Source: Halanaerobium saccharolyticum subsp. saccharolyticum DSM 6643 (GTDB lineage Bacteria > Bacillota > Halanaerobiia > Halanaerobiales > Halanaerobiaceae). Taken from it: DNA of 32,000 bases. Of the stretch, positions 1 to 32,000 are shown piece by piece. Position 1 is the stretch's first letter; each line of letters begins with the position of its first letter. Where the stretch lies: assembly GCF_000350165.1 (NCBI RefSeq), contig NZ_CAUI01000015.1:221313-253312 (forward strand). Direction: 5' to 3'. The notes beneath the pieces are model-generated. The model saw only the letters and a program-made list of their open reading frames with translations, was not told the DNA's origin and searched no databases. The translations under genes were made by a program, and so were the position numbers.

Positions 1-859
1 TTCTTAAAAGCAATCTTAAAACAGCTTTTTCCCCATAAATTGTTGGAATAACCGAGCTTCTAATATCAAAAACTTCTTCCTGAAAATTAAAATCCATTTT
101 ACCATCTTGAGGTAAATGTCTAATTGTAATATCCATTCCCGAAATAATTTTAATTCTTGAAATTACTGCTGCAGCTATTTCTACTGGTAAACTGTAATAA
201 TTTTTTAAAATTCCGTCAATTCTATATCTAATTTTAAAATAATCTTTTTTCTGCTCAAGATGAATATCACTTGCATTTAAAGAAATTGCCTCTGTTAATA
301 TTTTATTTAAAAGTTTAACAACAGGTGCATCTTCAACTATATTTTTTAAACTGTCAATATCTCTGCTGTCTATTTTTTTAAAATCACCAAGATCTTTTAA
401 AATTTCTCTCTGGTCAATTTTAAAATAACTGCTGTATAAAAGGTTTTCTGCCTCTGAAAATTCACTTTCTGTCATTAAATAAAATTTAATTTTAGTTTTA
501 TATTTAAATTTCAATTTTTCCTGCAAAAATAAATCAGGTGGATAAACACTGGCAAAAGATATAAGGGTTTTTGTTTTATTAATTAAAATTACTTTATATT
601 TGTGAACCTCAGCTATTCCCAATTCTCGAGCTTTATTTTTTTTAATTGTTAGATTAGAATTTTGATAAATTTCAACCTCAAAATAATCAGAAATCGCCTG
701 CAGTAAATCATTTTCTTTTAAAATAGTTTCTGACCTAAGATAATCTATTATTTCTTTTATTTCCCTATTTTCTGAAAAACGCTTTAACTTTAGCCGTTTA
801 GATTCTGAAAAAGAACAGCTTTTAAATAAATATTCACAAAAATTTTGGATATCTTTCAC
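1..859 (-). CDS. GspE/PilB-family secretion ATPase, N-terminal part (3' end runs off the window)
   Basis: Not in the ORF track because it is open at the window edge. My minus-strand translation from GTG at 859 gives ...VEDAPVVKLLNKILTEAISLNASDIHLEQKKDYFKIRYRIDGILK...ISGMDITIRHLPQDGKMDF...DIRSSVIPTIYGEKAVLRLLLR. This parallels PilB in this window (ASDIHIEP, RYRVDG, IPQDGR, VSTLPTIYGEKVVIRLL). An in-frame TAA lies just upstream of the GTG. Confidence 0.7.
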   Translation of the reverse strand, partial: MKDIQNFCEYLFKSCSFSESKRLKLKRFSENREIKEIIDYLRSETILKENDLLQAISDYFEVEIYQNSNLTIKKNKARELGIAEVHKYKVILINKTKTLISFASVYPPDLFLQEKLKFKYKTKIKFYLMTESEFSEAENLLYSSYFKIDQREILKDLGDFKKIDSRDIDSLKNIVEDAPVVKLLNKILTEAISLNASDIHLEQKKDYFKIRYRIDGILKNYYSLPVEIAAAVISRIKIISGMDITIRHLPQDGKMDFNFQEEVFDIRSSVIPTIYGEKAVLRLLLR

Positions 860-14172: not shown

Positions 14173-14246
14173 AATATATTAAGAATAACATTTTTTATAT
14201 TATTTTGTTATTACCCAAAAGTGTAATTTTTAGGAGGAGTAAACAC

Positions 14247-15020
14247 GTGAATTTAGAAATCAAATGGGAAATTATTTTAGATATTATTTATAAAACAGGT
14301 AGAATTATTGATTTACATAAGTATTCCTATTATTTTTTAAAAGAACTTAATCAAATTATCCCATTTTATGCTGCTAATTTTTTTCTTTTTGACAACGAAA
14401 AAGAATTAATATGTGATCCTATCTGTTTTAATATTAGTGATAGTGTATTAAAAGACTATAATGATTATTACTGGCAAATAGATGACATTAGAAATTTAGC
14501 TTTTGATCAGCATGAACCAATTATTAGCACTCAATTAATGGATTATAATAGTTGGACTAATACTGAATATTTTAATGATTTTCTGGCTAAAAACAGACTA
14601 TATTATTCCTGTGGAATTGATATCCACGCCGAAAAAAGACTTTTAGGGACTATCAGTCTTTTTAGAACCTGCAAGGATAGAAATTTTGGCCCTGCTGATC
14701 TAATCTATTTAAATCTTTTAGCTAAACACAGCAGTAATCATCTTAAAAAATTGTTTGAAATAGATAGATTGAAAAAACAAAGAAATAAAAAGCAAGAAAA
14801 TATAATTATACATAAAGCAGAAAACTTTAATTTAAGCAAAAGAGAAAAAGATGTTTTGAAACTTATTTTATTAGGTAAGACTAACGAAGAAATTGCAAAA
14901 AATTTATTTATTTCAGTTAATACAGTTAAAAAACACCTCAGCCATATTTTTAATAAAACAGAGGTACATAATAGAACTGAATTAGCTTCTCTAATTTATA
15001 AGAAAACCTCAGCTTTTTAA
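14247..15020 (+). CDS. LuxR/FixJ-family HTH transcriptional regulator with an uncharacterised N-terminal sensor-like domain
   Basis: C-terminal LuxR HTH (LSKREKDVLKLILLGKTNEEIAKNLFISVNTVKKHLSHIFNKTEVHNRTELA). No receiver-domain motifs in the N-terminal 190 aa. I prefer GTG at 14247 (AGGAGG 9 nt upstream) over the track's TTG at 14205. Confidence 0.8.
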   Translation: MNLEIKWEIILDIIYKTGRIIDLHKYSYYFLKELNQIIPFYAANFFLFDNEKELICDPICFNISDSVLKDYNDYYWQIDDIRNLAFDQHEPIISTQLMDYNSWTNTEYFNDFLAKNRLYYSCGIDIHAEKRLLGTISLFRTCKDRNFGPADLIYLNLLAKHSSNHLKKLFEIDRLKKQRNKKQENIIIHKAENFNLSKREKDVLKLILLGKTNEEIAKNLFISVNTVKKHLSHIFNKTEVHNRTELASLIYKKTSAF

Positions 15021-19315: not shown

Positions 19316-19435
19316 TAAACAAAATAATCCACAGCAAATTCACTGTGGCATAAACCTGAGGCAAACTTGACAATCATAGATAAATTCCGTAGATTCAAGT
19401 CTTTGCGTAATAATTTTTCAATTATCTTGCCGTTA
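19316..19435 (-). promoter_or_regulatory. GEMM-I (c-di-GMP-I)-like riboswitch aptamer plus intrinsic terminator, copy A
   Basis: Minus-strand RNA: GGCAAG-AUAAUU-GAAA-AAUUAU-U-ACGCAAAG-ACUUGA-AUCUACGGAAUUUAUCUAUGAUUG-UCAAGU-UUGCC. This gives a GNRA-capped P1a, the conserved GCAA and ACGCAAAG strands, a P1b with receptor-like CUAcGG...CUAUG, and P1 closure. It is followed by CCUCAGGU, then CCACAG-ugaauuug-CUGUGG AUUAUUUUGUUU. Recognised by eye; no covariance model was run. Confidence 0.62.
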
Positions 19436-19460
19436 AAATATTTTATTAGTTGTTTTATTA

Positions 19461-19628: not shown

Positions 19629-21503
19629 TTAATTGTTATTGATTAATGCCTCTAATTCTTCAGGAGTTAATTCTTGAAATTCCTTTTGCTCCTGAGATTT
19701 ATTATCTTTAAGAGAATTCAAAATTTCTTCTCTTCGTTTATCTCTTTCTTCTAAATATTCTTGAAGTGCTTTATCACTATCTTGATCTTCATTCATTTCT
19801 TCTATCTCTTTTCCCTTTGGATTTCTATCTACAACCTTTGTTGTGTTATCCAAAGCTTTATCAATTAAGTGATTCTCTTGTTCTACAGTTTGATCATATT
19901 TTATAATTCTTGGAGTTACAAAGATAACTAGTTCATTAACATTTTCATTTTTATTTCTTGTTTTAAATAATTCACCTAGTATTGGAATATCTCCTAATAA
20001 AGGGATCTTGGTTATTACTCCATCATTAGTTGTCTGGATTAAACCTCCAATAACTATTGTTTCTCCATCTTTAAGTCTTAATCTTGTTTCAACTCTTCTA
20101 GATTTTTTAGATGGTGGTTTTTGTTCTTGAGGGTCAAAAATCTGGAAGCTACTTACTTCAGGAATAATCTGAAGTTCAATTTCATCATTTTCTGTTATCC
20201 AAGGAGTGAATTCTAAAATAACTCCTGCTTCTACATAATCATATGAATACTGCAATATGCCATCATCATTTCTTTCAATGTCAGTTACATAAGGTTCTTC
20301 ATCAAGAATATCCATAGAAGCAGTTTCTCCATTTAAAGTCATCAAACGGGGATTAGCTAAAGTTTCAGAATCCTCACTTTCATCTAAAGCTTTAAAAAAT
20401 TGTGGCCAGTCATAATCTAATTCAGTAATATCACCATCCAAGTCTTTTATAAACTCAATACTTGAAAAATCACTCAAATTTTCTATCCCAAATTGTCTAT
20501 TAAAGTTAGATGATATTTCCTCTACTCTAGTTTCAATAACTACCTGATATTGAGGTTTATTAATTTCTTTAATTAATTCTTCTACCCCATCTAATTTATT
20601 TCGGGCACCATTTATAATAATTTCTTTACGTTTAGCATTTACATGTAGTTTTACATTTGGATAAAACTTACCAACTATTTCATTTATTTGTTCTGTATCG
20701 ACATAATCAACTCGTATATTTCGAGTCTCCGGCTCCAAACTTTCATCATATGTTTTAGCCATTGAGATTGCATTTTCTACATCCACTTTATTACCACTTA
20801 TAATTAAATTATTTGTCAACGGATTAGATCTAATTGAAAGATCCGAATTAATATCAAGTAACTTATTTCTTAAATCTGCTAATTCAGCATTGAATAATTT
20901 ATAACTCTCTGTATAAATTTCTCCATCTTCAGATGTTGAAATTCCATCACCAGAAGTAATATATTCTCCTGCAGTTTTTTTCTGAGCAACGGCTGATGTA
21001 TCTAGTCTCTCAATCATTTCTCTAATTTCGACTACTCTTTCTTCTTCTCCCTTTAATATAAACTGTCTTCTGACAGAATCAGCTGTAATTTGAGTGTCAG
21101 GGAAAATATCCTTAACTATTACTGATATATTGTCCAGATCATTAGATTTAACTTCTACAAACTCAGTCACCATATTAGAATATATCTCTTCTATTCTATC
21201 AGGGGAAGCAACAACAACCGTGTTCTCATCCCACTTATAGGTTAATGACCTGGTCTGGGTAATTAAATCTAAAGCCTTATTAAAACTAATATCTTTTAAA
21301 TGAATTGTAATTGTTCCACTAACATTACTATCAGTAATTAAGTTAACATTTGCCACCTCAGCAATTGCACGTAAAACATCTGTTAAATCAGCATTTTTAA
21401 AATTCATATCATTAATTCTTCCCTGTGCTCCTACTGCTGCTGTAGCGGATAAAATAAAAACTAAAATTAAGATTAATGCAGTTATCTTTTTATTATCTCT
21501 CAT
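19629..21503 (-). CDS. pilQ: Type IV pilus secretin
   Basis: Signal peptide, then an STN/N0-like domain (FKNADLTDVLRAIAEVANVNLITD...ITIHLKDISFNKALDLI). Canonical C-terminal secretin domain (LANPRLMTLNGETA..., TRLRLKDGETIVIGGL, KIPLLGDIPILGELFK, ELVIFVTPRII). I prefer ATG at 21503 (GGAGGGG RBS, overlaps the pilP-like stop) over the track TTG at 21518. Confidence 0.85.
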   Translation of the reverse strand: MRDNKKITALILILVFILSATAAVGAQGRINDMNFKNADLTDVLRAIAEVANVNLITDSNVSGTITIHLKDISFNKALDLITQTRSLTYKWDENTVVVASPDRIEEIYSNMVTEFVEVKSNDLDNISVIVKDIFPDTQITADSVRRQFILKGEEERVVEIREMIERLDTSAVAQKKTAGEYITSGDGISTSEDGEIYTESYKLFNAELADLRNKLLDINSDLSIRSNPLTNNLIISGNKVDVENAISMAKTYDESLEPETRNIRVDYVDTEQINEIVGKFYPNVKLHVNAKRKEIIINGARNKLDGVEELIKEINKPQYQVVIETRVEEISSNFNRQFGIENLSDFSSIEFIKDLDGDITELDYDWPQFFKALDESEDSETLANPRLMTLNGETASMDILDEEPYVTDIERNDDGILQYSYDYVEAGVILEFTPWITENDEIELQIIPEVSSFQIFDPQEQKPPSKKSRRVETRLRLKDGETIVIGGLIQTTNDGVITKIPLLGDIPILGELFKTRNKNENVNELVIFVTPRIIKYDQTVEQENHLIDKALDNTTKVVDRNPKGKEIEEMNEDQDSDKALQEYLEERDKRREEILNSLKDNKSQEQKEFQELTPEELEALINNN

Positions 21504-21939
21504 TAATTTCCCCTCCAATCCTCAGCTGAAAAGTAAAACCTCGGTTTTTAACAGTTATACTATCCTGACTAATTGCTGATATTATATAATTATTTTTCTC
21601 ATATCTGCCTCTAATAAATTCTACTCCATCTCCAGAATTAACCACTGCTATTCTATCATTACCACTTGTTATAATTCCAGCTAATCTAAAGGGTATACCC
21701 ATTTTTATATCTTCAAAAGTAATTACTGGCTCTGTTCTCTGTCCAGTTTCATTATTAGCTATACTACCCTGAGCTGCATTGTTTGCTGCAGCTTCAGCTG
21801 GGTCTACATATTCTACAAATGGATTTCTAAATATTCTTTCCTCATTTTCTTCCGCATCTTCCTGTGCTATTACATTAAATGAGAAAATAAGTAGAAGTAA
21901 GATAGATGCTAATAAAATATATCTGTTATTTTTAAACAT
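21493..21939 (-). CDS. pilP: PilP-like inner-membrane/periplasmic pilus alignment protein
   Basis: From ATG 21939 (overlaps the pilO stop; GGAG upstream): MFKNNRYILLASILLLLIFSFNVIAQ signal/anchor. It has an RNPF motif (compare RDPF of PilP) and a C-terminal beta-rich domain. Its position between pilO and pilQ supports the call. No lipobox Cys. Confidence 0.55.
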   Translation of the reverse strand: MFKNNRYILLASILLLLIFSFNVIAQEDAEENEERIFRNPFVEYVDPAEAAANNAAQGSIANNETGQRTEPVITFEDIKMGIPFRLAGIITSGNDRIAVVNSGDGVEFIRGRYEKNNYIISAISQDSITVKNRGFTFQLRIGGEINER

Positions 21940-22483
21940 CAGTCTCAACTCCTTCCAAAGTAATAAGTTGATCATGATAAATAACACCCATATTGATAGT
22001 TACCCCATCGGCTGAATTTCTCTGGATATCCAAAGATGTAAATTCAAACCAGTAATTCCATTCTCCAAAATCCTCAAAAAGATTTGTAACTTCTCTAAAT
22101 CCACCATCTATGATAACAGTCATTGAAATTCCATCAGCTATTTGAGTTGGTCTATATAATCTGAGTTCAACATCATTATCTTTAGCTGCTTCTCTAAACT
22201 CAATTAATAAATCAATAACATCTTTATCTAAATAAACCCCTCTAGCTTCTAAATCAGCAATTAATAATTGATATTCTTCTTTTATCTCTGGCAATCTCCT
22301 AGCAAAACCAATTGCTGTCTCTAAACGAGCTGATTTTTGGCTTTTTTCTAGTTCTAAATTTGCTATTTCTTCTGTTAAAGGCTGATAGAAATAAAAATAA
22401 TATACAGCTCCAACTGCTATGATAATAACCAAAGTAAGCAGTATTTTTTCTCGATTGCTCAAATTACTAAACATACTACTCAC
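21932..22483 (-). CDS. pilO: PilO-like pilus assembly protein
   Basis: 183 aa with a single N-terminal TM, then a coiled coil (EEIANLELEKSQKSARLE). Translationally coupled after pilN. Confidence 0.68.
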   Translation of the reverse strand: MSSMFSNLSNREKILLTLVIIIAVGAVYYFYFYQPLTEEIANLELEKSQKSARLETAIGFARRLPEIKEEYQLLIADLEARGVYLDKDVIDLLIEFREAAKDNDVELRLYRPTQIADGISMTVIIDGGFREVTNLFEDFGEWNYWFEFTSLDIQRNSADGVTINMGVIYHDQLITLEGVETDV

Positions 22484-22985
22484 TCTCCTTTTCTACTAAT
22501 TCTGCAGTTATTGTAAAACGAACTTCTTCTTGTTTTTCCATTGTCTGCAGGTTAACATTAGTAAAATATTCTGATTCACTTAAATTGATAGTTAATTCTC
22601 TTAATTCCTCAGCTATTTTAGTTCTACCCCTGATATTTAAAGATCTGTTTTGTAGTGAAAAATTGTCAATTACTCCCCGCAAGGGTGTTAAAAAGCCCAT
22701 TGCTTCAACTGGACCATCCCAGACATAATCTGGTATCCCGGGAGTACTTTTAATTTCTTCCACCATAGCTTCATATCTTTTATACTCTTCTTCTCGAGGT
22801 AAATAAATTTCTAATTGATTTTCAATATTTCTAATCTCACTCTGTAATACATCTCTGTCAATAATAAGACTAAACTGTAAATATCCAATTATCACAAATG
22901 TTAATAAAACAGCTAAAGTAATTATAACTCTTAAATAATCAAAAATAACTCCCTGTTTTTCTTCTACAAGTAGATTAACTCTCAT
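22476..22985 (-). CDS. pilN: PilN-like pilus assembly protein
   Basis: 169 aa with N-terminal MRVNLL (the PilM-binding INLLP-like motif), one TM and a coiled coil. Overlaps the pilM stop. Confidence 0.7.
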   Translation of the reverse strand: MRVNLLVEEKQGVIFDYLRVIITLAVLLTFVIIGYLQFSLIIDRDVLQSEIRNIENQLEIYLPREEEYKRYEAMVEEIKSTPGIPDYVWDGPVEAMGFLTPLRGVIDNFSLQNRSLNIRGRTKIAEELRELTINLSESEYFTNVNLQTMEKQEEVRFTITAELVEKESE

Positions 22986-24075
22986 CAGACATCACCTCAC
23001 TAACACCAAGACCAACAGCAACAGCAAATTCGTATTTATAATGTTCCATCATTTTTTCTTTTTCACTGTCTACCTTTGTCTTAATGTTTTTAAAGGGATC
23101 AATTATAATTAATTCTCTGCTTATTTCTTCACTGATTATCTTTTGCAAACCTTGAAGACGAGAAGCACCACCAGTAACGAATATTTTTTCTACTTCCTCA
23201 TCTCGATGTTTCATATTAAAGAAATCCAAAGATCTAGTAATCTCAGCAGAAAGTCTGGAAGCTAAATTTCTTAAATTGGCATTATCTTCACCATTTGTTT
23301 CCATACCAATAGGCATTGAACTCAAAGCATCTTCCTCAGTTTCTTGTTCAGCTTCTAACCCTAAATTAAGTTCTTTTTTCTCTTCTTCAGCAGATTGAAA
23401 ATCAATGTTTTTAAGATCCATAATTGAATTAGTAAAACTTGTACCCCCAGTATCAATAGTTCTAGATAACATAATATCTCTCTTATTAGCTATTGTTATC
23501 TGAGTAGCAGAAGCACCAATATCAATAATAGCAATATTGCTGTCAGCCTGTCCTTGATAATCAAGTAAGGAGACTAAAGCCATTGGCTGAACATTAATTA
23601 CTTTAGGTTTAAGATTTAAGCGTTCAAAAGGATGCAAAAAGTTATCCACTACATTCTTTTTCACTGCTGCTACAATGTATTTTATTACTTCTTCATTTTC
23701 TTCGACCTTTAAATAATCTAAAGCAGCATTGTCTACTGGATAAGGAAGTTGTTCATCTGCTTCCCATTTTAAAGACTCTCTAATTTCTTTTTGCTTCATA
23801 TTGGGCATTTCAATATTTCTAATTAATAAATTATCATTTGGTACTGTTGTAATAATATTTTTTGTACTATTCTCTAAAGATTGAAGCAAATTATGAAGTT
23901 CAGAAGAAACTAAAGAATCATCAGCAATTAAACCATCAATAATAGTTTCAAAAGGAAGCTTTTGGATTCCAAAATCAACTATAGTAAACTCATTTCCCTT
24001 AACTTTAAACTGAACAGCTTTGATTGCATTTGTACCAAGCTCAATACAGGTGTAATTTTTTGCCATAAAAAACAT
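22975..24075 (-). CDS. pilM: PilM, actin-like ATPase of the pilus alignment complex
   Basis: 366 aa with CIELGTNAIKAV, IIDIGASATQITI and FVTGGASRLQGL (actin/FtsA fold phosphate motifs). Confidence 0.85.
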   Translation of the reverse strand: MFFMAKNYTCIELGTNAIKAVQFKVKGNEFTIVDFGIQKLPFETIIDGLIADDSLVSSELHNLLQSLENSTKNIITTVPNDNLLIRNIEMPNMKQKEIRESLKWEADEQLPYPVDNAALDYLKVEENEEVIKYIVAAVKKNVVDNFLHPFERLNLKPKVINVQPMALVSLLDYQGQADSNIAIIDIGASATQITIANKRDIMLSRTIDTGGTSFTNSIMDLKNIDFQSAEEEKKELNLGLEAEQETEEDALSSMPIGMETNGEDNANLRNLASRLSAEITRSLDFFNMKHRDEEVEKIFVTGGASRLQGLQKIISEEISRELIIIDPFKNIKTKVDSEKEKMMEHYKYEFAVAVGLGVSEVMSDES

Positions 24076-24098
24076 ATTACCACCCCACTTCTTAATAA

Positions 24099-25268
24099 TT
24101 AATTTTCACTCCATGAAATCATTTCATCAACACTAAATTTATTTTGGTTTGAATTCAATGGAGAATCAATACCCCATTTTTTAAGAACTTCTAGAAATTC
24201 AGGATCATAATTAATATTTCCGTCATTTGCAGATGAATTATTGAGAGTCAAATTACCGCCAGATATAAGTGAGCCAGTAATATCAAATTTATTACCAAAA
24301 AGTGTATCACTATAGGAATAAATTAAACCCTGCATGATAATCGAATTATCACCTTCAAGAGATTCTTCTCCTTCAACTAAAACTCCCTCATTATCAATAT
24401 TACCTTTAGCAATTATTATCAGATAATCATCTTCATAACCGGCTTCTTGATTGATTAATATATTAGTTCCTATTGATAATTTACCATCAACTACAATAAC
24501 ACCACTACCATTTAAATTTTTAATCTGTTTATCAATATTTAAATTACCTTGGATATAAGTAAACTGTTCTGCTATTTGATCAATACTTTCGACATTAATA
24601 TAATCAACTAAATTAACATATTCTACTGTTTCATTGGCATTAAGTAAAACTTTATTGTCAGCTTGATTTTTTAATTCTTCAAAATCAAACTCTGGAATAA
24701 CAAATTCTGAATCAGTTATAACATCTACTGTATCACCCTGTTCATCAATGATTTCTCCATTTATGCCATCTCTAGAAATAATTTTACCACTAGACAGAAT
24801 TTGGTTGTTATTAACATCAATCAAGCCTCCAGAAGCAATGGTACTATCAAAAATACTATTATAAATAGAATAGGCTGCAGTCACTGTTTCAGATACACCA
24901 TTATTAGAGGCAGTAGCTCTGAATTCAACAATATTATAACTATCTTTAAATTCCCATTCTAATTTTTCTACATTAGCTCCATCTAAATATGAATTAATTT
25001 CTGAAAATGATGTTAATTTATATTTAGGATTAACTTCTTGATCAGGGTTTAAGCGGCTTCTTTTATTATCCTTATCAAAAACTTCAGTTCCATATGCTAT
25101 TGCGGCTTCGGCAGCATAAAAAGCTTTTCTTTGATTACTATTATAACTGTAAAAATCCAATTCACTCTGCAGCATTCTAGTCATACTGGCAACCATTAAT
25201 AAAATTGCTACTAAAATGAACATTGAAAGTACTAGTGTAAATCCTTTTTCATCTCTTGCTTTAATCAA
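24099..25268 (-). CDS. PilX-N/GspK-like large pseudopilin (no Glu5), module 1
   Basis: TTG start with RBS GGAAGGTGAG. MIKARDEKG|FTLVLSMFILVAILLMVA (Leu at +5), KAFYAAEAAIAYG, and C-terminal GLIYSYSDTLFGNKFDITGSLISGGNLTL...INYDPEF motif. Confidence 0.65.
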   Translation of the reverse strand: MIKARDEKGFTLVLSMFILVAILLMVASMTRMLQSELDFYSYNSNQRKAFYAAEAAIAYGTEVFDKDNKRSRLNPDQEVNPKYKLTSFSEINSYLDGANVEKLEWEFKDSYNIVEFRATASNNGVSETVTAAYSIYNSIFDSTIASGGLIDVNNNQILSSGKIISRDGINGEIIDEQGDTVDVITDSEFVIPEFDFEELKNQADNKVLLNANETVEYVNLVDYINVESIDQIAEQFTYIQGNLNIDKQIKNLNGSGVIVVDGKLSIGTNILINQEAGYEDDYLIIIAKGNIDNEGVLVEGEESLEGDNSIIMQGLIYSYSDTLFGNKFDITGSLISGGNLTLNNSSANDGNINYDPEFLEVLKKWGIDSPLNSNQNKFSVDEMISWSEN

Positions 25269-25295
25269 AAATAACTCACCTTCCTTAAGGATTTG

Positions 25296-25793
25296 TTATT
25301 TTAACAAGCGTGTATTAAAATAACTATTAAATTGATAGTTGTTAGTGGTTTCTTGATTGATTATATTTGCAGTTATTTGAATAAGACCATTACTAAAACT
25401 AAAATTAGGATCAGTAAATTTTAAATCTGTAATTTTCCTCTGCTTGCTATTAGTTAGATCATAAAAATATAAATAATCATCTGTATTACTTCCTCGGCCA
25501 AAGGCAACAGCTTTAGTAGTACCAGCATCATTATACTCTAAATACAATATATCCTGATCACTAGTTAAAGAGCTATTATTATAATTTGGATTAACAGCGG
25601 TTGCTTTTCTTGCATACTGGCTGATCCATCTATGGGTTAAATCCTGAACTCTCTGAACTTCCATCCGACTTTTATTATAATTCCAGGCCTGAAGACTGCT
25701 AAAATATGCATTATAAACAGCTGCCGCTATCACAGCAACAATAGCTACTGTAATCATTACCTCAATTAAAGTAAATCCTTTTTCAGTTTTCAT
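25296..25793 (-). CDS. Type IV prepilin-like protein (minor pilin, module 1)
   Basis: MKTEKG|FTLIEVMITVAIVAVIAAAVY with Glu5. Confidence 0.8.
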   Translation of the reverse strand: MKTEKGFTLIEVMITVAIVAVIAAAVYNAYFSSLQAWNYNKSRMEVQRVQDLTHRWISQYARKATAVNPNYNNSSLTSDQDILYLEYNDAGTTKAVAFGRGSNTDDYLYFYDLTNSKQRKITDLKFTDPNFSFSNGLIQITANIINQETTNNYQFNSYFNTRLLK

Positions 25794-26216
25794 TTAACCA
25801 CCATCCCTAACAAGAGATGTTAATTGATAATTTTTTTTGTCATTATCCCAGTAAACTGTTGCAGTAATTTTTTTATTATTTCCAATTCCTGAATCAAATA
25901 TTACATCTATATCATAATCATCAGTGAATTTATCATATGAATTGATTATTTCATTTTCAATATCACTAGTATTTGTTGAAAATTTATTAACCTGTGTACT
26001 GAGACTTAGAGCTTCATTTTGAGAAGTCATTTTAAAATATTCCATTGTATCTACTGCCATGTCCATAGCCTGTGATCTTATTTCAGTCTGATGAACTAAA
26101 TTTATGCTGTTTGTAAAATATCCTAAAGCAGGAAAAATTGCAATTGTTAAAATTACTATACTGGACATAGTCTCAACTAAACTATAACCATCAGATTTTT
26201 TAAAAAAAGAAAACAT
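25794..26216 (-). CDS. Type IV prepilin-like protein (minor pilin, PilV-like, module 1)
   Basis: MFSFFKKSDG|YSLVETMSSIVILTIAIF with Glu5. Confidence 0.7.
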   Translation of the reverse strand: MFSFFKKSDGYSLVETMSSIVILTIAIFPALGYFTNSINLVHQTEIRSQAMDMAVDTMEYFKMTSQNEALSLSTQVNKFSTNTSDIENEIINSYDKFTDDYDIDVIFDSGIGNNKKITATVYWDNDKKNYQLTSLVRDGG

Positions 26217-26234
26217 AAATTATTACCCTACTTC

Positions 26235-26984
26235 CTATAAAAATAAATTTATATACCAATTAAAAAGTGTATCTCCAAAAAAGATCATAACTACTGCCCC
26301 AATACAGATAAATGGACCAAAAGGAATTCTAGTCTTTCTTCCTATAATACCTAATCCCATCAATGAAAGACCTATAATAGAACCAAGTAAGGAACCAAGA
26401 AAGATTCCGGCTAAAGTATAGCTCCAACCCATAAATCCTCCTATTGCAGCAACCAGTTTAACATCACCCATCCCCATGCCACCTTTAAAGATAAAGGCTA
26501 CAATTAAAAGTAATAAAGATGGAATAACAATTCCTAATAATGATTGAAAAATAGTAAGATAATCAAATATAATAGCAGATAATACAGAAATCACTATTAA
26601 AGGATATGTTATTTTATTCGGAATAATCATATATTTATAATCAATAACAGTAACAGCAATTAAAGCAGAGATTAATAACAAATAAATGAATAACTGAATA
26701 GATATACCAAATTTTAGATAAGCAGCTAAAAATAAAAAACCAGTCAAAAGTTCTACTAAAGGATACTGAATTGATATTTTTGTGTTACAGTAGCGACACT
26801 TACCTCTTGTTGACAAGAAACTTAAGACTGGTATTAAATCAATAACTTTTAATCTTGTTCCACATTTAGGACAGTGAGAAGGTGGAGTAATGATTGATTT
26901 TTCTTCTGGTAGTCTGTAAATTATTACATTTAAGAAACTACCTATTAAAAGTCCTAAGATTAAAAAATATAAAAAAAATATCAT
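26235..26984 (-). CDS. pilD: Prepilin peptidase / N-methyltransferase (A24 family)
   Basis: 249-aa polytopic membrane protein with CPKCG...CRYCN zinc motif. Catalytic Asp motifs are in GMGMGDVKL and IPFGPF. Confidence 0.92.
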   Translation of the reverse strand: MIFFLYFLILGLLIGSFLNVIIYRLPEEKSIITPPSHCPKCGTRLKVIDLIPVLSFLSTRGKCRYCNTKISIQYPLVELLTGFLFLAAYLKFGISIQLFIYLLLISALIAVTVIDYKYMIIPNKITYPLIVISVLSAIIFDYLTIFQSLLGIVIPSLLLLIVAFIFKGGMGMGDVKLVAAIGGFMGWSYTLAGIFLGSLLGSIIGLSLMGLGIIGRKTRIPFGPFICIGAVVMIFFGDTLFNWYINLFL

Positions 26985-27013
26985 TTATAATAACTCCTTA
27001 ATAAATGAATTTA

Positions 27014-27047
27014 ATATAGAAGGAAGAAATATTTCTTCCTTCTATAT
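27014..27047 (-). terminator. Perfect 34-nt palindrome downstream of pilA (partial terminator or stabiliser)
   Basis: ATATAGAAGGAAGAAAT|ATTTCTTCCTTCTATAT lies 26 nt after the pilA stop. The downstream U-tract is imperfect (UUAAAUUCAUUUAUU), so read-through into pilD is expected. Confidence 0.45.
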
Positions 27048-27072
27048 TAACTATTTGTATTACCCATAAAAA

Positions 27073-27489
27073 TTAAGGTGATGCTATTAAACCAGATGAA
27101 ATAGTAAATACTTCAGCAGGGTCAGTATCAGCCACAGTCACAGAAATTTCATAACTACTTGTACTTATATCATAACTAGTACTACTTGTATCAAGATATT
27201 GAGACAGATCAGCATAATCCATTTCTATATATTTTTCTAAATCTCCAATTAAACTTTCTAAGTCACTACTAGTAGGATATTCAGCATCATTATCAGCATA
27301 ATACATTTCTAAACCATTTTTAACATTTCTCATATTAGCCTCTACAGCAGATATTTTAGCTCTATCAGTAATCCCCCCCATTCTTGGAATAGCAATCGCA
27401 GCTAAGATACCCAACACAGCAATAACAACTAATAACTCAATTAAAGTAAAACCATCCTCATGTTTAAATAGATTTCTAATTTTTTGCAT
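27073..27489 (-). CDS. pilA: Major type IV pilin
   Basis: MQKIRNLFKHEDG|FTLIELLVVIAVLGILAAIAIP, the canonical class III signal and Glu5. 138 aa with its own strong promoter, strong RBS (AAAGGAGAG) and a downstream hairpin. No cysteines. Confidence 0.85.
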   Translation of the reverse strand: MQKIRNLFKHEDGFTLIELLVVIAVLGILAAIAIPRMGGITDRAKISAVEANMRNVKNGLEMYYADNDAEYPTSSDLESLIGDLEKYIEMDYADLSQYLDTSSTSYDISTSSYEISVTVADTDPAEVFTISSGLIASP

Positions 27490-27526
27490 TTTTATTCTCT
27501 CCTTTCAAATTTTAAAACTTTAACTA

Positions 27527-27555
27527 ATTATACCATATCTTTTATATTCTGTCGA
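27527..27555 (-). promoter_or_regulatory. Strong sigma-A promoter with extended -10 for pilA
   Basis: Minus strand TCGACA-17 nt-TATAAT, with TGG immediately upstream of the -10 (TGnTATAAT). Lies in the pilC-pilA intergenic region. Confidence 0.55.
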
Positions 27556-27568
27556 TATAGTACTTTAC

Positions 27569-28780
27569 TTAAAATTGTTGGAACATATCGAACATTGGAG
27601 TTACAATTGAAATCGCAACAAAACCTACCATTACAGCAAGTAAAACAATCATAACCGGTTCAATCAGAGAAATTGCACCGTCAACTGCTGCCTCAACCTG
27701 TCTGTCATAAAATCTAGACACCTTGTTTAACATATCACCTACTGCTCCAGTTTCCTCACCTACACTCAGCATATGCACTAACATCGGTGGATATTCTCCA
27801 CTTTCTTTAAGAGGTTCAGAAAGTGTACTACCTTCTCTTACTCTTACCCTTGCCTCTGTTAAAATATCAGAAAAAACCTTGTTGCCAACAACATCCTCAA
27901 CAATAGATAATGACGAAAGTAAATCAACTCCACTATCAAGCAAAATAGCCAGAGTACTGGAAAAACGAGAGACATAAACCTTTCTCATCATCGGACCTAA
28001 AACAGGTATTTTTAGTATCAGCCGATCCATCCTCTCCTTTCCTTTAGGAGTTTTGCGATATCTTGAAAAAAGGAAAATAATAATTACAGTACCCAATAAC
28101 AGCATCCACCAGTACGCCTGCATAAAAGTACTTAATCCCAACAACATCCTTGTAGGTAATGGTAATTGAGTTCCAAAATCCTGAAACATACCTACAAATT
28201 GTGGTACAACTTGTAAAACTAAGAAAATAACTACTGCTATACCAACCATTAAAATTACCAGCGGATAGTACATAGCAGATTTAACCATGCTGTTAAGTTC
28301 ATCCTGGCGGTCAAAGTGATCTGCCAACTTATTTAAAATGGTATCCAGCACACCACCACTCTCACCAGCCCTAACCAGCTGTATATATAATTCTGGAAAT
28401 ACCTTTGGATGTTTAGCAAAGGCATCAGCCAGAGAAATACCAGTTTCCACATCTTCCTGTACCTTAGTAATAACATCTTTTAGAGTTGAATGCTCAGTCT
28501 GTTTAGCCAGAATAAATAGAGCATCAACTAAAGAAATACCAGCATCAATCATAGCAGCAAACTGCTGACTGAAAATTGCAAGATCTTTTAGTTTAACTTT
28601 TTTTCTAAAATTAAAAATTTCTTTTACATCGCGGGCAGCCCTTTTTTCTTTGATTTCAGTAACAAAATAACCCTGAGACCTAAGCTGGCTGGCAATTGAA
28701 GATTTATCTTCTGCCTCAATTTCCCCCTTGACAGTTTCTCCGTTTTTGTTTTTTGCTGTATATTCAAACTGTGTGGCCAT
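27569..28780 (-). CDS. pilC: Type IV pilus platform protein (GspF family)
   Basis: 403 aa with two GspF repeats and three TM segments. RBS GAGGAGG. Confidence 0.92.
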   Translation of the reverse strand: MATQFEYTAKNKNGETVKGEIEAEDKSSIASQLRSQGYFVTEIKEKRAARDVKEIFNFRKKVKLKDLAIFSQQFAAMIDAGISLVDALFILAKQTEHSTLKDVITKVQEDVETGISLADAFAKHPKVFPELYIQLVRAGESGGVLDTILNKLADHFDRQDELNSMVKSAMYYPLVILMVGIAVVIFLVLQVVPQFVGMFQDFGTQLPLPTRMLLGLSTFMQAYWWMLLLGTVIIIFLFSRYRKTPKGKERMDRLILKIPVLGPMMRKVYVSRFSSTLAILLDSGVDLLSSLSIVEDVVGNKVFSDILTEARVRVREGSTLSEPLKESGEYPPMLVHMLSVGEETGAVGDMLNKVSRFYDRQVEAAVDGAISLIEPVMIVLLAVMVGFVAISIVTPMFDMFQQF

Positions 28781-28794
28781 CTAGCTCAACCTCC

Positions 28795-29883
28795 TCAGTC
28801 TCTGCTGCCGCTAATTTTTCTCTTAATATATTCTGGATCATTAGAACGCTTTATAGTTTCTTCATACTCAATTAAACCTTTTTGATATAAATCAACAAGA
28901 TAATTATCCATCATCACCATTCCATATTTAGCACCAGTCTGCATTGAAGATACAAGTTGGTGGGTTTTACCTTCACGAATAATGTTTTTGACAGCGGATG
29001 TAGCAATTAAAATTTCTAATGCCGCTATTCGTTTGCTGCCATCTGCTCTTTTCAATAACTGCTGTGAAATAACACCATTTAAGGCAGTTGCCAGCTGAAC
29101 TCTAACCTGATCCTGCTGATGAGATGGAAAAACATCGATTATTCTTTCTATAGTACTCGGCGCATCATTAGTATGCAGTGTTGCAAAGACTAGGTGCCCA
29201 GTTTCTGAAGCTTCTAAAGCAATTGAAATAGTCTCTAAATCTCTCATCTCACCTACAAGGATAACATCTGGATCCTGTCTCAAAGAAGCTCTCAAACCAT
29301 TGGCAAAAGACATTGTATCTGAGCCAACTTCCCGTTGATGCACAATACATTTTTTATGTGAGTGCAGATATTCAATTGGATCCTCTAAAGTTATAATGTG
29401 AGCCTGTTTGTTTTGATTAACCACATCTATCATTGCAGCCAGAGTAGTCGATTTACCACTACCAGTCGGTCCTGTACATAAAACAAGTCCATTTCTCTGC
29501 ATTGAAAGTCTTTTTAAAACATCTGGTAAACCTAATCCATCTATAGTTGGAATCTCACTTGGTATTATTCTTAAAGCTATAGATGTTGAGCCACGCTGAT
29601 GATAAGCATTAACACGAAAACGGCAATAACCAGGTATACTGTAAGAAAAATCAACCTCACCATCTCTAACAAAAATTTTCCACTGCTCATCATTCATTAA
29701 TTTTTTGGCGATATTATTTATTTCATCCATTTCTAGCGGAGCTGAAAATTCTTCCCGTACTTGAAGATCTCCATTATAGCGAATAATAGGTTTTTTCTTA
29801 ACTGTTAAATGTAGATCAGAAATAGCCGGATTATCTGATATTTCCTTCATCAATTCTATAACTTCCACAGGCAAAACCTCCAT
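28795..29883 (-). CDS. pilT: Twitching-motility retraction ATPase
   Basis: 362 aa with Walker A GPTGSGKSTT, Asp box, Walker B ILVGEMRD, His box ATLHTN and the PilT signature AVKNIIREGKTHQL. An alternative GTG start at 29868 has a perfect GGAGG RBS 8 nt upstream. Confidence 0.92.
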   Translation of the reverse strand: MEVLPVEVIELMKEISDNPAISDLHLTVKKKPIIRYNGDLQVREEFSAPLEMDEINNIAKKLMNDEQWKIFVRDGEVDFSYSIPGYCRFRVNAYHQRGSTSIALRIIPSEIPTIDGLGLPDVLKRLSMQRNGLVLCTGPTGSGKSTTLAAMIDVVNQNKQAHIITLEDPIEYLHSHKKCIVHQREVGSDTMSFANGLRASLRQDPDVILVGEMRDLETISIALEASETGHLVFATLHTNDAPSTIERIIDVFPSHQQDQVRVQLATALNGVISQQLLKRADGSKRIAALEILIATSAVKNIIREGKTHQLVSSMQTGAKYGMVMMDNYLVDLYQKGLIEYEETIKRSNDPEYIKRKISGSRD

Positions 29884-29896
29884 TCTAAATTAAATT

Positions 29897-31570
29897 TTAG
29901 TGAATAACACTTACCAGTTCATTATAGCTGGTAATCCCCTGACGAAGTTTTTCCTTACCATCCTCAAGTAATCCTTTCATACCATTTTCTCTAGCATAAC
30001 GCTTAAGTTCAGGTTCGTTGACTCCTTCTGTAATCATTTCTTCTAACTTAGTATCTATCTCTAAAATTTCGTGAATAGCAATTCTACCTTTATAACCATC
30101 AGTACAGCTTTCGCATTTTTCTTGAGAAGGGCGGTAAAGCTGATCCACATTATTATTTAAAAACTGTTTAACCTCTGGGCCAGGTTGATAACCTTCTTTA
30201 CAGTTAGGACAGAGTCTTCTAACAAGACGCTGGGCAATCACCCCAATAACTGTTGAAGCCACTAAATAGCCCGGAATTCCCATATCCATCAATCTAGTTA
30301 CAGCACTAACTGCATCATTTGTGTGCAAAGTACTTAAAACCAGGTGGCCTGTTAAAGCAGCTCTAATTGCAATTTCTGCAGTTTCTTCATCTCTGATCTC
30401 ACCAACCATTACTATATCCGGATCCTGTCTTAAAATAGATCTTAGGGTATTAGCAAAGGTTAGGCCAACTTTTTTATTAGCATGGACCTGATTCAGACCA
30501 TTTAACTGATATTCCACCGGATCCTCAATTGTTACAATATTTTTGGTCGGTGAATTAATTTCATTTAAAGCCGCAAATAAGGTTGTAGATTTACCACTAC
30601 CTGTTGGTCCGGTAGCTAATAAAATTCCATAAGGTTTTTTAATCAATCTATTAAACCTTTCCTTATTTTCTGCACTAAAACCTAACTTTTCTATATTTAA
30701 GAGGCTGTCATCCCTGTTTAAAAGTCTGATAACCACCTTTTCTCCATAAATTGTAGGTAGAGTCGAGACCCGCATATCTATCTGCATTCCCTTAAAGTTC
30801 ATCTGAATTCTTCCATCTTGAGGAATTCTGCGTTTAGTAATATCTAAGTCAGCAATAATTTTTAAACGAGAAATTAAAGCAGCCTGCGAATGTTTGGGAA
30901 TTGTAAGTTCCTCATGCAGGACTCCATCAACTCTGTAACGGACTCTAACACTACCTCTAAGCGGCTCAATGTGAATATCACTTGCCTTCGTGTGAATAGC
31001 CTGAGTTATAATCAAGTTGGTTAAGCGAACAATTGGTGCATCTTCTACCATCTGTCTTAACTGATCAAGCTCTGGCTCTTCATTCATTCCATATTGATCA
31101 AGACTATCAAAGATATCAGATGTATCAGTATCGATTAATGAATAAACCTGGTTAATTGCATTTATAATCTCCGAATGAGTTGCAATTGCTACTTCTATTT
31201 TCATACCGGAATTAACCTCTATATTTTCAATTGCTACTAAATCTGTTGGATCTTCCATTGCTACTTTTAAAAGATCATCTTCTATTTCATAAGGGACTGC
31301 ATTATGACGTCTAGCTAAATTTTCAGAAACATATTGAGAAAGGTGAGCATTTAATAAATAATTATTCAAATTAACCCTTGGAATACCCAGCTGATATTCT
31401 AAAACATCTATCAATTCTTCCTCAGATACATAACCTAATTTCTCTAATACTTCACCCAATCTCTGATCCATATCTTCCTGCTCAGATATTGCAGCTTCTA
31501 ACTCATTTTGAGTTATATAACCAAACTCAATTAGTAAATCACCAATTTTCTTTTTACTTTTAGCTCCCAT
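29897..31570 (-). CDS. pilB: Type IV pilus assembly ATPase with an MshEN-type N-terminal domain
   Basis: 557 aa. It has a T2SSE_N domain, Walker A GPTGSGKSTT, Walker B IVMVGEIRD, STLHTN and the tetracysteine motif CPNC...CESC. RBS GAGGAG. Confidence 0.93.
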   Translation of the reverse strand: MGAKSKKKIGDLLIEFGYITQNELEAAISEQEDMDQRLGEVLEKLGYVSEEELIDVLEYQLGIPRVNLNNYLLNAHLSQYVSENLARRHNAVPYEIEDDLLKVAMEDPTDLVAIENIEVNSGMKIEVAIATHSEIINAINQVYSLIDTDTSDIFDSLDQYGMNEEPELDQLRQMVEDAPIVRLTNLIITQAIHTKASDIHIEPLRGSVRVRYRVDGVLHEELTIPKHSQAALISRLKIIADLDITKRRIPQDGRIQMNFKGMQIDMRVSTLPTIYGEKVVIRLLNRDDSLLNIEKLGFSAENKERFNRLIKKPYGILLATGPTGSGKSTTLFAALNEINSPTKNIVTIEDPVEYQLNGLNQVHANKKVGLTFANTLRSILRQDPDIVMVGEIRDEETAEIAIRAALTGHLVLSTLHTNDAVSAVTRLMDMGIPGYLVASTVIGVIAQRLVRRLCPNCKEGYQPGPEVKQFLNNNVDQLYRPSQEKCESCTDGYKGRIAIHEILEIDTKLEEMITEGVNEPELKRYARENGMKGLLEDGKEKLRQGITSYNELVSVIH

Positions 31571-31663
31571 AATTTACTCCTCAATTAGTTTAATTATTTT
31601 TCTATCTATAAATTTTATATTATAATGTCGAAATATCTAGAATTACCTTGCTTAATTAATAAA

Positions 31664-31690
31664 GTTCTATATAGCTAATATTATTCCTGC
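31664..31690 (-). promoter_or_regulatory. Candidate sigma-H-like promoter between the riboswitch terminator and pilB
   Basis: Minus strand TTTTGCAGGAATA-atattagctat(11)-ataGAAC. The -35-like element is identical over 14 nt to the copy at 956-969. Confidence 0.33.
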
Positions 31691-31737
31691 AAAATTTTAA
31701 TCAAATTTTAATTTTATTTTAAAATTAAAGCTTTTTA

Positions 31738-31856
31738 GCAAAAAATTGCCATTAAAAAGTTCACTATGGCAATTTTTACCTGAGGTAAACATAACTATCA
31801 TAGGAAATCCCTTAGACTTATGTTTTTGCGTCACAGCCTTTAAACTGCTTTGCTAT
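31738..31856 (-). promoter_or_regulatory. GEMM-I (c-di-GMP-I)-like riboswitch aptamer plus intrinsic terminator, copy B, in the pilB leader
   Basis: Minus-strand RNA: AGCAAAGCAG-UUUAAAGG-CUGUG-ACGCAAAA-ACAUAA-GUCUAAGGGAUUUCCUAUGAUAG-UUAUGU-UUACC. It is followed by CCUCAGGU, then AUUGCCAU-13 nt-AUGGCAAU UUUUUUU. Colinear with copy A (shared GCAA, ACGCAAA, UCUA.GG, CUAUGAU, CCUCAGGU, terminator). Confidence 0.58.
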
Positions 31857-32000
31857 TATATATTTAACTTAAAGTATCCTCATTCTAATTTAATTATAAA
31901 ATTATTAATTTAAAAAGTATATTACCCAAAAGAGTAATTCTTACTTAATTATTTATTCTTCCTCTGCTTCAAGTTCTTTTTGTTCTATAATCTCCACTGC

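Follow-up and report, generated by a model that had tools for sequence, protein, structure and literature searches.

Background

The 2007 discovery paper on GEMM RNAs already tied these elements to pilM, pilO, pilQ, pulF and hofQ, and class I riboswitches for cyclic di-GMP (c-di-GMP-I, or GEMM-I) have since been described in front of several genes for surface structures. The present work concerns the leader of pilB in Halanaerobium saccharolyticum subsp. saccharolyticum DSM 6643, analysed within a stretch of 32,000 nucleotides (nt) of contig NZ_CAUI01000015.1 (positions 221,313 to 253,312; hereafter the window), where a c-di-GMP-I aptamer followed by an intrinsic terminator stands before a type IV pilus operon. 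Positions are those of the window and features lie on the minus strand unless otherwise indicated. An initial annotation made from the letters of this stretch had presented a class I aptamer before a full pilus operon as a different wiring; the arrangement was found as described, but its novelty was overstated, given that the link between GEMM and pilus genes dates from 2007. A literature search on Halanaerobium riboswitches or pili returned nothing relevant among the top-ranked results.

The structural reference for GEMM-I is Vc2, from the tfoY leader of Vibrio cholerae, where one c-di-GMP guanine is contacted by G20, the other is base-paired to C92, and the ligand meets A47 at the junction. 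The pilB leader resembles Vc2 in A47, C92, the two hairpins and a possible tetraloop-receptor-like contact, and differs from it in three respects, since Vc2 has G20, an outer P1 helix and a GAAA loop on P1a, where the window has UAAA. Among Firmicutes, Cd1 (Cdi-1-3, upstream of flgB in Clostridioides difficile) is likewise a GEMM-I riboswitch without P1, with a separate intrinsic terminator that coexists with the aptamer, and likewise serves an organelle of motility or of the cell surface. When the Cd1 antiterminator forms, the second hairpin of the aptamer (P3, which corresponds to P1b here) is unfolded, an action that is proposed for the pilB leader by analogy. Unlike the pilB leader, Cd1 has G at the ligand-contact position, controls flagella and not pili, and places its antiterminator strand ~50-60 nt downstream, which leaves a long binding window, whereas the candidate strand GGUAAA here lies 3 nt past C93; moreover, the OFF direction of Cd1 has been demonstrated, whereas we infer it here.

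The GEMM-Ib riboswitch of Geobacter metallireducens pilM, a characterised transcriptional ON switch, shares the GEMM-I fold, the A at position 20 and the transcriptional mode of action, and heads a pilMNOPQ operon that includes the secretin gene. It differs in its host, a Deltaproteobacterium, in its demonstrated selectivity for cyclic GMP-AMP (cGAMP), and in having a stable ligand-induced P1 and a terminator that overlaps the aptamer, the two being mutually exclusive; the pilB leader shows neither P1 nor overlap, and its operon is headed from pilB on. Cdi-2-4, upstream of pilA1 in C. difficile, also places a c-di-GMP riboswitch acting by termination or read-through before a Firmicute type IV pilus operon, but it has the c-di-GMP-II fold, a monoderm host, an operon without secretin and a demonstrated ON direction. 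Finally, Bc2 (cap, Bacillus thuringiensis) is a Firmicute GEMM-I riboswitch with A in place of G20 and a terminator directly after the aptamer, controlling a surface adhesion factor; its target is a collagen adhesin, its ON direction was demonstrated, and cGAMP does not appear among the nucleotides listed as tested in the text consulted.

A Class I c-di-GMP Riboswitch in the pilB Leader

The pilB leader occupies a gap of ~380 nt between the stop codon of the upstream gene (~31953) and the pilB start (31570). Comparison with Rfam revealed a match to RF01051 (c-di-GMP-I) at 31864-31781, with 55.0 bits against a gathering threshold of 35 and an E-value of 2.5e-08 for the whole window or 4e-10 for a 500-nt region, covering positions 1-87 of the 87 of the model without truncation. 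It was the sole meaningful match in the riboswitch region at E<=1; for RF01786 (c-di-GMP-II), none was found at gathering in the window and none at E<=1 in 31500-32000. The class I assignment of the initial annotation, which had proposed this very search, was thus borne out by a match 20 bits over gathering with no class II match beside it. The location given there was also right, although its 5' limit (31856) falls short of the start of the Rfam match (31864) by 8 nt; no essential part is lost thereby, because the model treats these as unpaired flank.

All the hallmarks named earlier (GCAAA, P1a, ACGCAAA, P1b with CUAAGG...CUAUG, UUUACC and the terminator) were read on the minus strand. From 5' to 3', the aptamer comprises the 5' strand A-GCAAA (31854-31849), the P1a hairpin GCAGUU-UAAA-GGCUGU (31848-31833), the junction ACGCAAA (31831-31825) within an extended junction stretch GACGCAAAAAC that aligns to the RF01051 consensus (31832-31822), P1b with the receptor-like UCUAAGG...CCUAUGA (31825-31787), and the 3' strand GUUUACC (31790-31784). 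The RF01051 alignment places the pocket residues at 31854 (position 20, an A), 31827 (A47) and 31785 (C92), and both ACGCAAA with A47, the residue that intercalates between both guanines of c-di-GMP, and C92 are intact.

A pattern scan of metagenome contigs yielded 23 loci, and the deduplicated set consisted of 14 distinct pilB-leader and five sister-type sequences (19 in total). In all 14 distinct Halanaerobium pilB leaders, the aptamer lies 180-300 nt upstream of pilB-pilT, and RF01051 matches upstream of pilB reached 57.6 bits in a metagenome-assembled genome (L002), 49.9 bits in H. congolense (L008) and 59.6 bits in Halanaerobium sp. ST460 (L009) and in a second strain (L010). Across the 14 leaders, 98.7% of the helix cells of aptamer and terminator form standard pairs, and five aptamer pairs, three in P1a and two in apical P1b, are altered on both sides, giving a covariation score that was equalled in none of 500 shuffles. 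Since it recurs in 14 pilB leaders with this covariation, the match is not due to chance, and at the level of sequence the pilB leader is confirmed as a genuine class I c-di-GMP (GEMM-I) riboswitch of the A20 subtype with a terminator.

Most relatives share with the window a UAAA loop on P1a, and L009, L032 and L034 have GAAA; the receptor-like motif of P1b is kept in the window and all relatives with either loop, and a UAAA loop is unusual for a tetraloop-receptor contact. An outer P1 helix was discarded. Pairing of the 5' flank, which is A/U-rich, with the sequence after C93 showed no conserved complementarity, a UGAGG/CCUCA match being limited to the clade of the window and missing from L009 and L010.

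The five sister-type sequences lie upstream of pseudopilin operons or of a small Cys-rich open reading frame (ORF). Searched at E<=1, Halothermothrix orenii, Natronospora and three further Halanaerobiales, one of the three being a Halanaerobium-like contig, had no GEMM-I match in their pilB regions. As the aptamer was not found in the pilB regions of the other Halanaerobiales examined, aptamer and terminator form a lineage-restricted module of ~170 nt. In one Halanaerobium-like relative (L015), whose PilB is 80% identical, the whole ~170-nt module is missing and the downstream leader motifs are kept, which points to a presence/absence polymorphism within the genus.

Two further observations concern exchange at this locus. 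L017 shares the same riboswitch leader with L033 and L019 up to ~100 nt past the U run of the terminator, yet this leader precedes two distinct alleles of pilB, whose products are 80% and 54% identical to the PilB of the window; the pattern is suggestive of leader recombination or of pilus loci being exchanged. In L010, a DDE transposase gene (L010:252-1625) separates aroE from the riboswitch and lies ~90 nt upstream of the aptamer, and this sequence is identical to L009 from the insertion point of the transposase onward.

Position 20 and the Ligand

To map position 20, we took the base directly on the 5' side of the GC partnered with ACGC; the first A past ACGC follows 27 nt later, and the same spacing separates G20 from A47 in Vc2 and A14 from A41 in Geobacter Gs1761. 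The base is A (31854; model position 11) in all 14 distinct pilB leaders, so that the G which makes the canonical c-di-GMP-I contact is absent; this is the sole departure from the canonical pocket, and the initial annotation had not remarked on it. According to reports on this position, A20 marks the GEMM-Ib RNAs, which sense cGAMP, the A20G change in Geobacter Gmet_0970 turns the selectivity from cGAMP to c-di-GMP, Vc2 G20A binds both ligands via a protonated adenine, and the characterised pilM riboswitch is a cGAMP sensor. Together with the constant A20, which is the GEMM-Ib base at this position, these data speak for an alternative in which the pilB copy would sense 3',3'-cGAMP or both dinucleotides, as GEMM-Ib RNAs do, and a second copy in the window with G20 (described below) would sense c-di-GMP only, placing two messengers at one pilus locus.

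We regard this alternative as improbable. The same reports state that several GEMM-Ib riboswitches are bispecific and that Bc2, with A at position 20 in a Firmicute, is nevertheless c-di-GMP-responsive, natural A20 variants such as Bc2 still being counted in RF01051; by analogy with these cases, A20 alone is insufficient to assign cGAMP as the ligand. Among orthologues of the second copy, all located after pilQ, position 20 is G in the window and L036 and A in L027, and the sister-type L035 also has A; such a swap among close strains is hard to square with a change of ligand. To our knowledge, no cGAMP synthase is known in Halanaerobium, and no Hypr-GGDEF or DncV-type synthase gene was found within the 32-kb window. 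Because G and A interchange between second-copy orthologues of close relatives, c-di-GMP is probably the ligand of the pilB-leader riboswitch, and its pocket with A20 may admit 3',3'-cGAMP as well. A point on the other side is that the presence of A20 in 14 of 14 pilB leaders could reflect selection for another ligand.

Terminator and Expression Platform

The intrinsic terminator predicted from sequence and fold at 31774-31740 consists of AAUUGCCAU (31774-31766), a 13-nt loop, AUGGCAAUU (31752-31744) and a U run at 31745-31740, which gives a stem of 8-9 bp with three G-C pairs followed by U6. The initial annotation had reported an 8-bp stem plus U7; the hairpin is indeed directly downstream, but the run holds six U, not seven. 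RNAfold recovered the terminator in the minimum free energy (MFE) structure of the leader, whereas the terminator scan was negative there because the 13-nt loop exceeds the 8-nt limit of the scanner. The terminator starts 7 nt past the end of the Rfam match (9 nt past C93), the pilB start follows 170 nt further, and the order of aptamer, terminator and pilB is alike in all riboswitch-bearing relatives. The lower stem AAUUGCC/GGCAAUU (7 bp) and the U6 are invariant in all 14 pilB leaders, whereas the stems of the aptamer covary. Aptamer and terminator have no nucleotide in common, and both are present in the MFE structure.

Between them lies a switching segment (31775-31790) made of GUUUACC (31790-31784), UCA (31783-31781) and GGUAAA (31780-31775). 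Pairing of UUUACC with GGUAAA (-3.5 kcal/mol by RNAfold) would sequester C92 and C93. The run CC-UCA-GGU shows no variation, either among the 19 distinct sequences or across the full set of 23 metagenome loci, and the pattern used for the metagenome search ended at CC and did not demand UCA-GGU. A candidate antiterminator hairpin, GGUAA-AAA-UUGCC (31768-31780), takes up the core of the terminator 5' arm; it has an energy of -3.5 kcal/mol (RNAfold), its pairing potential is kept in 19/19 sequences, and its probability is ~0.95 as long as the transcript stops short of the terminator 3' arm. The earlier reading had recognised that UUUACC can pair with GGUAAA, which holds, and had seen no clear competition with the terminator, which does not, as there are two routes to it: GGUAA also pairs with UUGCC of the terminator 5' arm, and in the window sequence the UUUACC/GGUAAA helix can extend across that arm.

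Further analyses of the platform revealed four elements in succession, namely UUU(A/G)CC with C92 and C93 (segment 1), GGU plus purines, preceded by the invariant UCA (segment 2), UUGCC (segment 3), and GGCAA plus U6 (segment 4). The energies of the helices 1:2 and 2:3 are each -2 to -4 kcal/mol and those of 3:4, the terminator, -5 to -10.5 kcal/mol. Equilibrium snapshots along the growing transcript showed segment 2 paired with C92/C93 (P 0.9), then with UUGCC (P 0.95), and again with C92/C93 after the terminator had formed.

An antiterminator made of the 5' strand (A)GCAAA and a conserved UUUUGCU was rejected for the pilB leader, where UUUUGCU sits past the U run and therefore cannot act before termination; AGCAAA:UUUUGCU pairing may act in the second riboswitch, in which UUUUGCU lies inside the terminator. 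The stretch GGCAAUUUUUUGCU (31737-31752), conserved in 11 of the 14 leaders, has several pairing options: a fold of its own (GGCAA/UUGCU), a helix with the aptamer 5' strand AGCAAA, or a longer terminator via GGU.

Direction of the Switch

The reading that we favour, with a probability of about 45%, is that the riboswitch attenuates transcription at the terminator at 31774-31740 as an OFF switch of the Cd1 kind. The leader would be transcribed from upstream of pilB. With ligand bound, the 3' strand GUUUACC with its C92 would be locked in the aptamer, the terminator would form and read-through into pilB would decrease. Without ligand, the GUUUACC strand would pair with GGUAAA, and this pairing would extend across AAUUG and CAUAG of the terminator 5' arm and unfold P1b, allowing the polymerase to pass the terminator. 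Because there is no outer P1 and no shared nucleotide, aptamer and terminator can coexist, and what the ligand can do is therefore limited to removing structures that compete with the terminator. Coexistence versus overlap of aptamer and terminator is the defining contrast between Cd1 (OFF) and pilM (ON), and it is the resemblance to Cd1 in this respect that inclines the interpretation towards OFF. The class I riboswitches of C. difficile were all OFF in reporter assays, and all but one were OFF by RNA sequencing.

Secondary-structure modelling agreed with this in part. In transcripts ending before the terminator 3' arm, the alternative fold equals the aptamer fold in the window (-20.1 vs -20.1 kcal/mol, ddG 0.0) and lies within 0.6 kcal/mol of it in 8/14 pilB leaders. 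When the aptamer was locked in silico, the probability of the terminator went up in six of 19 sequences and down in two. At equilibrium, the terminator was predicted with the aptamer locked or unlocked in most pilB leaders, and polarity is therefore not given by thermodynamics alone. The statement of the initial annotation that ON or OFF cannot be deduced from the sequence consequently stands, as two models fit and neither is proven.

Several results weigh against an OFF switch of the Cd1 kind. The ligand-free MFE structure already holds the terminator in most sequences, which is more typical of an ON switch, and across the family the alternative fold was no better than that of dinucleotide-shuffled platforms (mean z 0.1). 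The estimated barrier to refolding from the aptamer fold is ~12 kcal/mol, a value that is an upper bound. Complementarity of the 3' strand to the terminator loop, which contains an AGUGAA motif, was weakly enriched (z from -2.4 to +0.8), and this pairing was rejected as a mechanism, its duplex energies barely beating those of shuffles. In addition, the invariant GGU...RCC hairpin appears compatible with the bound aptamer and would mask the terminator arm, and an OFF switch needs no such hairpin. In Firmicutes, c-di-GMP usually induces type IV pili; with the c-di-GMP-binding motifs of PilB described below, an OFF riboswitch would therefore make an incoherent circuit.

These points lead to the second model, an ON switch built as a four-segment attenuator, which we consider possible and put forward tentatively. 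Without ligand, helices 1:2 and 3:4 (the terminator) would form; with ligand, segment 1 would be held in the aptamer and helix 2:3 would mask the terminator arm, giving read-through into pilB. With no P1 in the way, stacking of the 2:3 hairpin beneath the bound pocket might let the ligand stabilise it, which is pure speculation. The pattern of conservation fits such a relay, CC-UCA-GGU, RCC in segment 3 and GG in segment 4 being invariant in 19/19 sequences while the neighbouring linkers vary, as does the toggling of GG between partners in the equilibrium snapshots. The terminator is the default ligand-free fold, and in the clade of the window it is weak (-5 to -6.4 kcal/mol, with a loop of 13-15 nt) when set against -3.5 kcal/mol for 2:3. 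The relay is clearest in the L030/L031 variant, with GGUAU-UUU-AUACC opposed to CCAAAG/CUUUGG. The biology also fits: C. difficile pilA1, Geobacter pilM and the A-variant Bc2 are all ON, and PilB carries MshEN motifs.

The energetics are less favourable to the ON relay. Even with segment 2 free, helix 2:3 is weaker than the terminator by 1.7-5.6 kcal/mol; in the sister type it has only 3 bp, against terminators of -10 to -15 kcal/mol; and the leverage of the ligand through 1:2 amounts to ~0.7-1.3 kcal/mol. A 5-bp hairpin should be displaced fast, and in L016 and L017 a U-U mismatch in both 1:2 and 2:3 goes with a terminator that is no weaker. It is very improbable that the relay (CC / GGU / RCC / GG), replacing the missing P1, reads out a cGAMP or dual sensor in a Firmicute which, with the G20 copy and the MshEN motifs of PilB, would let the pilus integrate two cyclic dinucleotides at three levels.

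Possible Transcription Independent of the Riboswitch

Probably only transcripts that start at an upstream promoter come under the control of the riboswitch; the promoter scan found no convincing promoter upstream of the aptamer, which counts against the favoured reading. Downstream of its terminator, the promoter scan found a promoter-like site, TTAAAA-17-TAAAAT (31722-31694), which is followed by a conserved GCAGGAAT (31690-31683). A GCAGGA(A/T) motif occurs 95-145 nt upstream of pilB, including in relatives without the riboswitch (L012-L015), and TTTCGACA (31626-31633) lies between this motif and pilB. The region 31722-31683 may be a second promoter or a binding site for a regulator. Given the conservation of the GCAGGA motif in relatives without the riboswitch, pilB may also be transcribed independently of it, and the riboswitch would then gate only read-through from the upstream promoter. 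A sigma-54 site, GCAGG-N10-GC, downstream of the terminator was discarded, as its GC is not conserved.

Weak or no coupling is unlikely. In one such reading, the aptamer-terminator unit would be largely uncoupled from pilB, with a near-constitutive terminator, pilB transcribed mainly from the site at 31722-31694, and a unit that gives a short RNA or insulates pilB. Such uncoupling would account for the prediction of the terminator with or without a locked aptamer, for the conservation of the promoter-like site and GCAGGA downstream even in relatives without the riboswitch, and for the coming and going of the ~170-nt unit between close relatives (L015 being without it). Nevertheless, the unit is always in a 5' regulatory position to pilB or pilin genes, and invariant switching elements adjoin the aptamer in the expression platform. 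Moreover, this AT-rich DNA gave 7 promoter-like matches where 4.5 are expected, which is close to chance. We therefore consider such uncoupling quite unlikely and retain attenuation by an OFF switch as the preferred reading.

Pilus Operon and Second Riboswitch

As had been proposed, the aptamer heads a type IV pilus operon with a secretin gene, since pilB through pilQ follow directly downstream on the same strand. The operon (19629-31570) contains, in order, pilB, pilT, pilC, a pilin gene, the prepilin peptidase gene pilD, two minor pilin genes, a PilX-like gene, pilM, pilN, a pilO-like gene, an ORF of 164 amino acids and pilQ, with Pfam matches to T2SSE, T2SSF, N_methyl, Peptidase_A24, PilM_2, PilN and Secretin (9e-47). 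The product of pilQ has 629 amino acids. PilB matches the protein of H. saccharolyticum subsp. saccharolyticum DSM 6643 with 100% identity (lineage Bacillota, Clostridia, Halanaerobiales). Halanaerobiales are diderm Firmicutes, which explains the presence of a secretin in the pilus operon. Residues 8-60 of PilB (31391-31549) hold two tandem 24-residue MshEN-type c-di-GMP-binding motifs separated by a 5-residue spacer, called with a regular expression for the published relaxed motif (PMC5013675), the second repeat with one mismatch. Thus, control of the pilus by c-di-GMP may operate through both RNA and protein.

A second c-di-GMP-I aptamer was found at 19357-19441 (RF01051, 53.1 bits; G at position 20, 19431), just past the terminator that closes the pilQ operon. 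It heads a minor-pilin operon (19201-15047) encoding a PilX-like protein (PilX_N), a pseudopilin (N_methyl) and DUF7305 proteins. Its terminator (19319-19348), detected by the terminator scan (at 19348-19329) and RNAfold, has the form CCACAGUG AAUU UGCUGUGG followed by AUUAUUUUGU. The platforms of both copies are homologous, with CCUCAGGU, then the RCC element and then AGUGAA.

The pilB-leader element is itself fairly ordinary: any Rfam-based annotation would flag it, and it overturns no current understanding. It adds, for a diderm Firmicute, a clear case of a class I c-di-GMP riboswitch before a complete type IV pilus operon. It is of modest interest because A20 does not vary among the pilB leaders, because an A20 and a G20 copy occur together at a single pilus locus, because the P1-less platform carries an invariant CCUCAGGU junction, and because the ATPase behind the riboswitch has MshEN motifs. 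With two homologous riboswitches that contrast A20 with G20, a shared CCUCAGGU junction and the c-di-GMP motifs of PilB, the locus offers a compact test bed. The polarity and ligand of both copies would show whether A20 variants outside Geobacter sense anything but c-di-GMP, how P1-less GEMM-I aptamers signal to the terminator, and whether RNA- and protein-level control of pili by c-di-GMP agree or oppose each other. Halanaerobium is relevant in hypersaline and shale-well settings, where attachment and biofilm are practical problems.

The gene upstream of the pilB leader encodes, by synteny with relatives, shikimate dehydrogenase (aroE). At its 3' side, a weak terminator-like hairpin, AUUACUC-UUUU-GGGUAAU followed by AUACUUUUU (31938-31912), is conserved in L002 and L008, and in L009 only 9 nt separate the end of the gene from the aptamer match. 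At the other end of the locus, a gene for a LuxR/GerE-type regulator (14205-15020, plus strand) is convergent to the end of the minor-pilin operon. Lastly, the sister-type riboswitch of L031 has a platform with a duplicated ACC...GGUAU unit and stands before a gene (+276..519) for an 81-amino-acid Cys-rich protein with CxxC pairs, and not before pilus genes.

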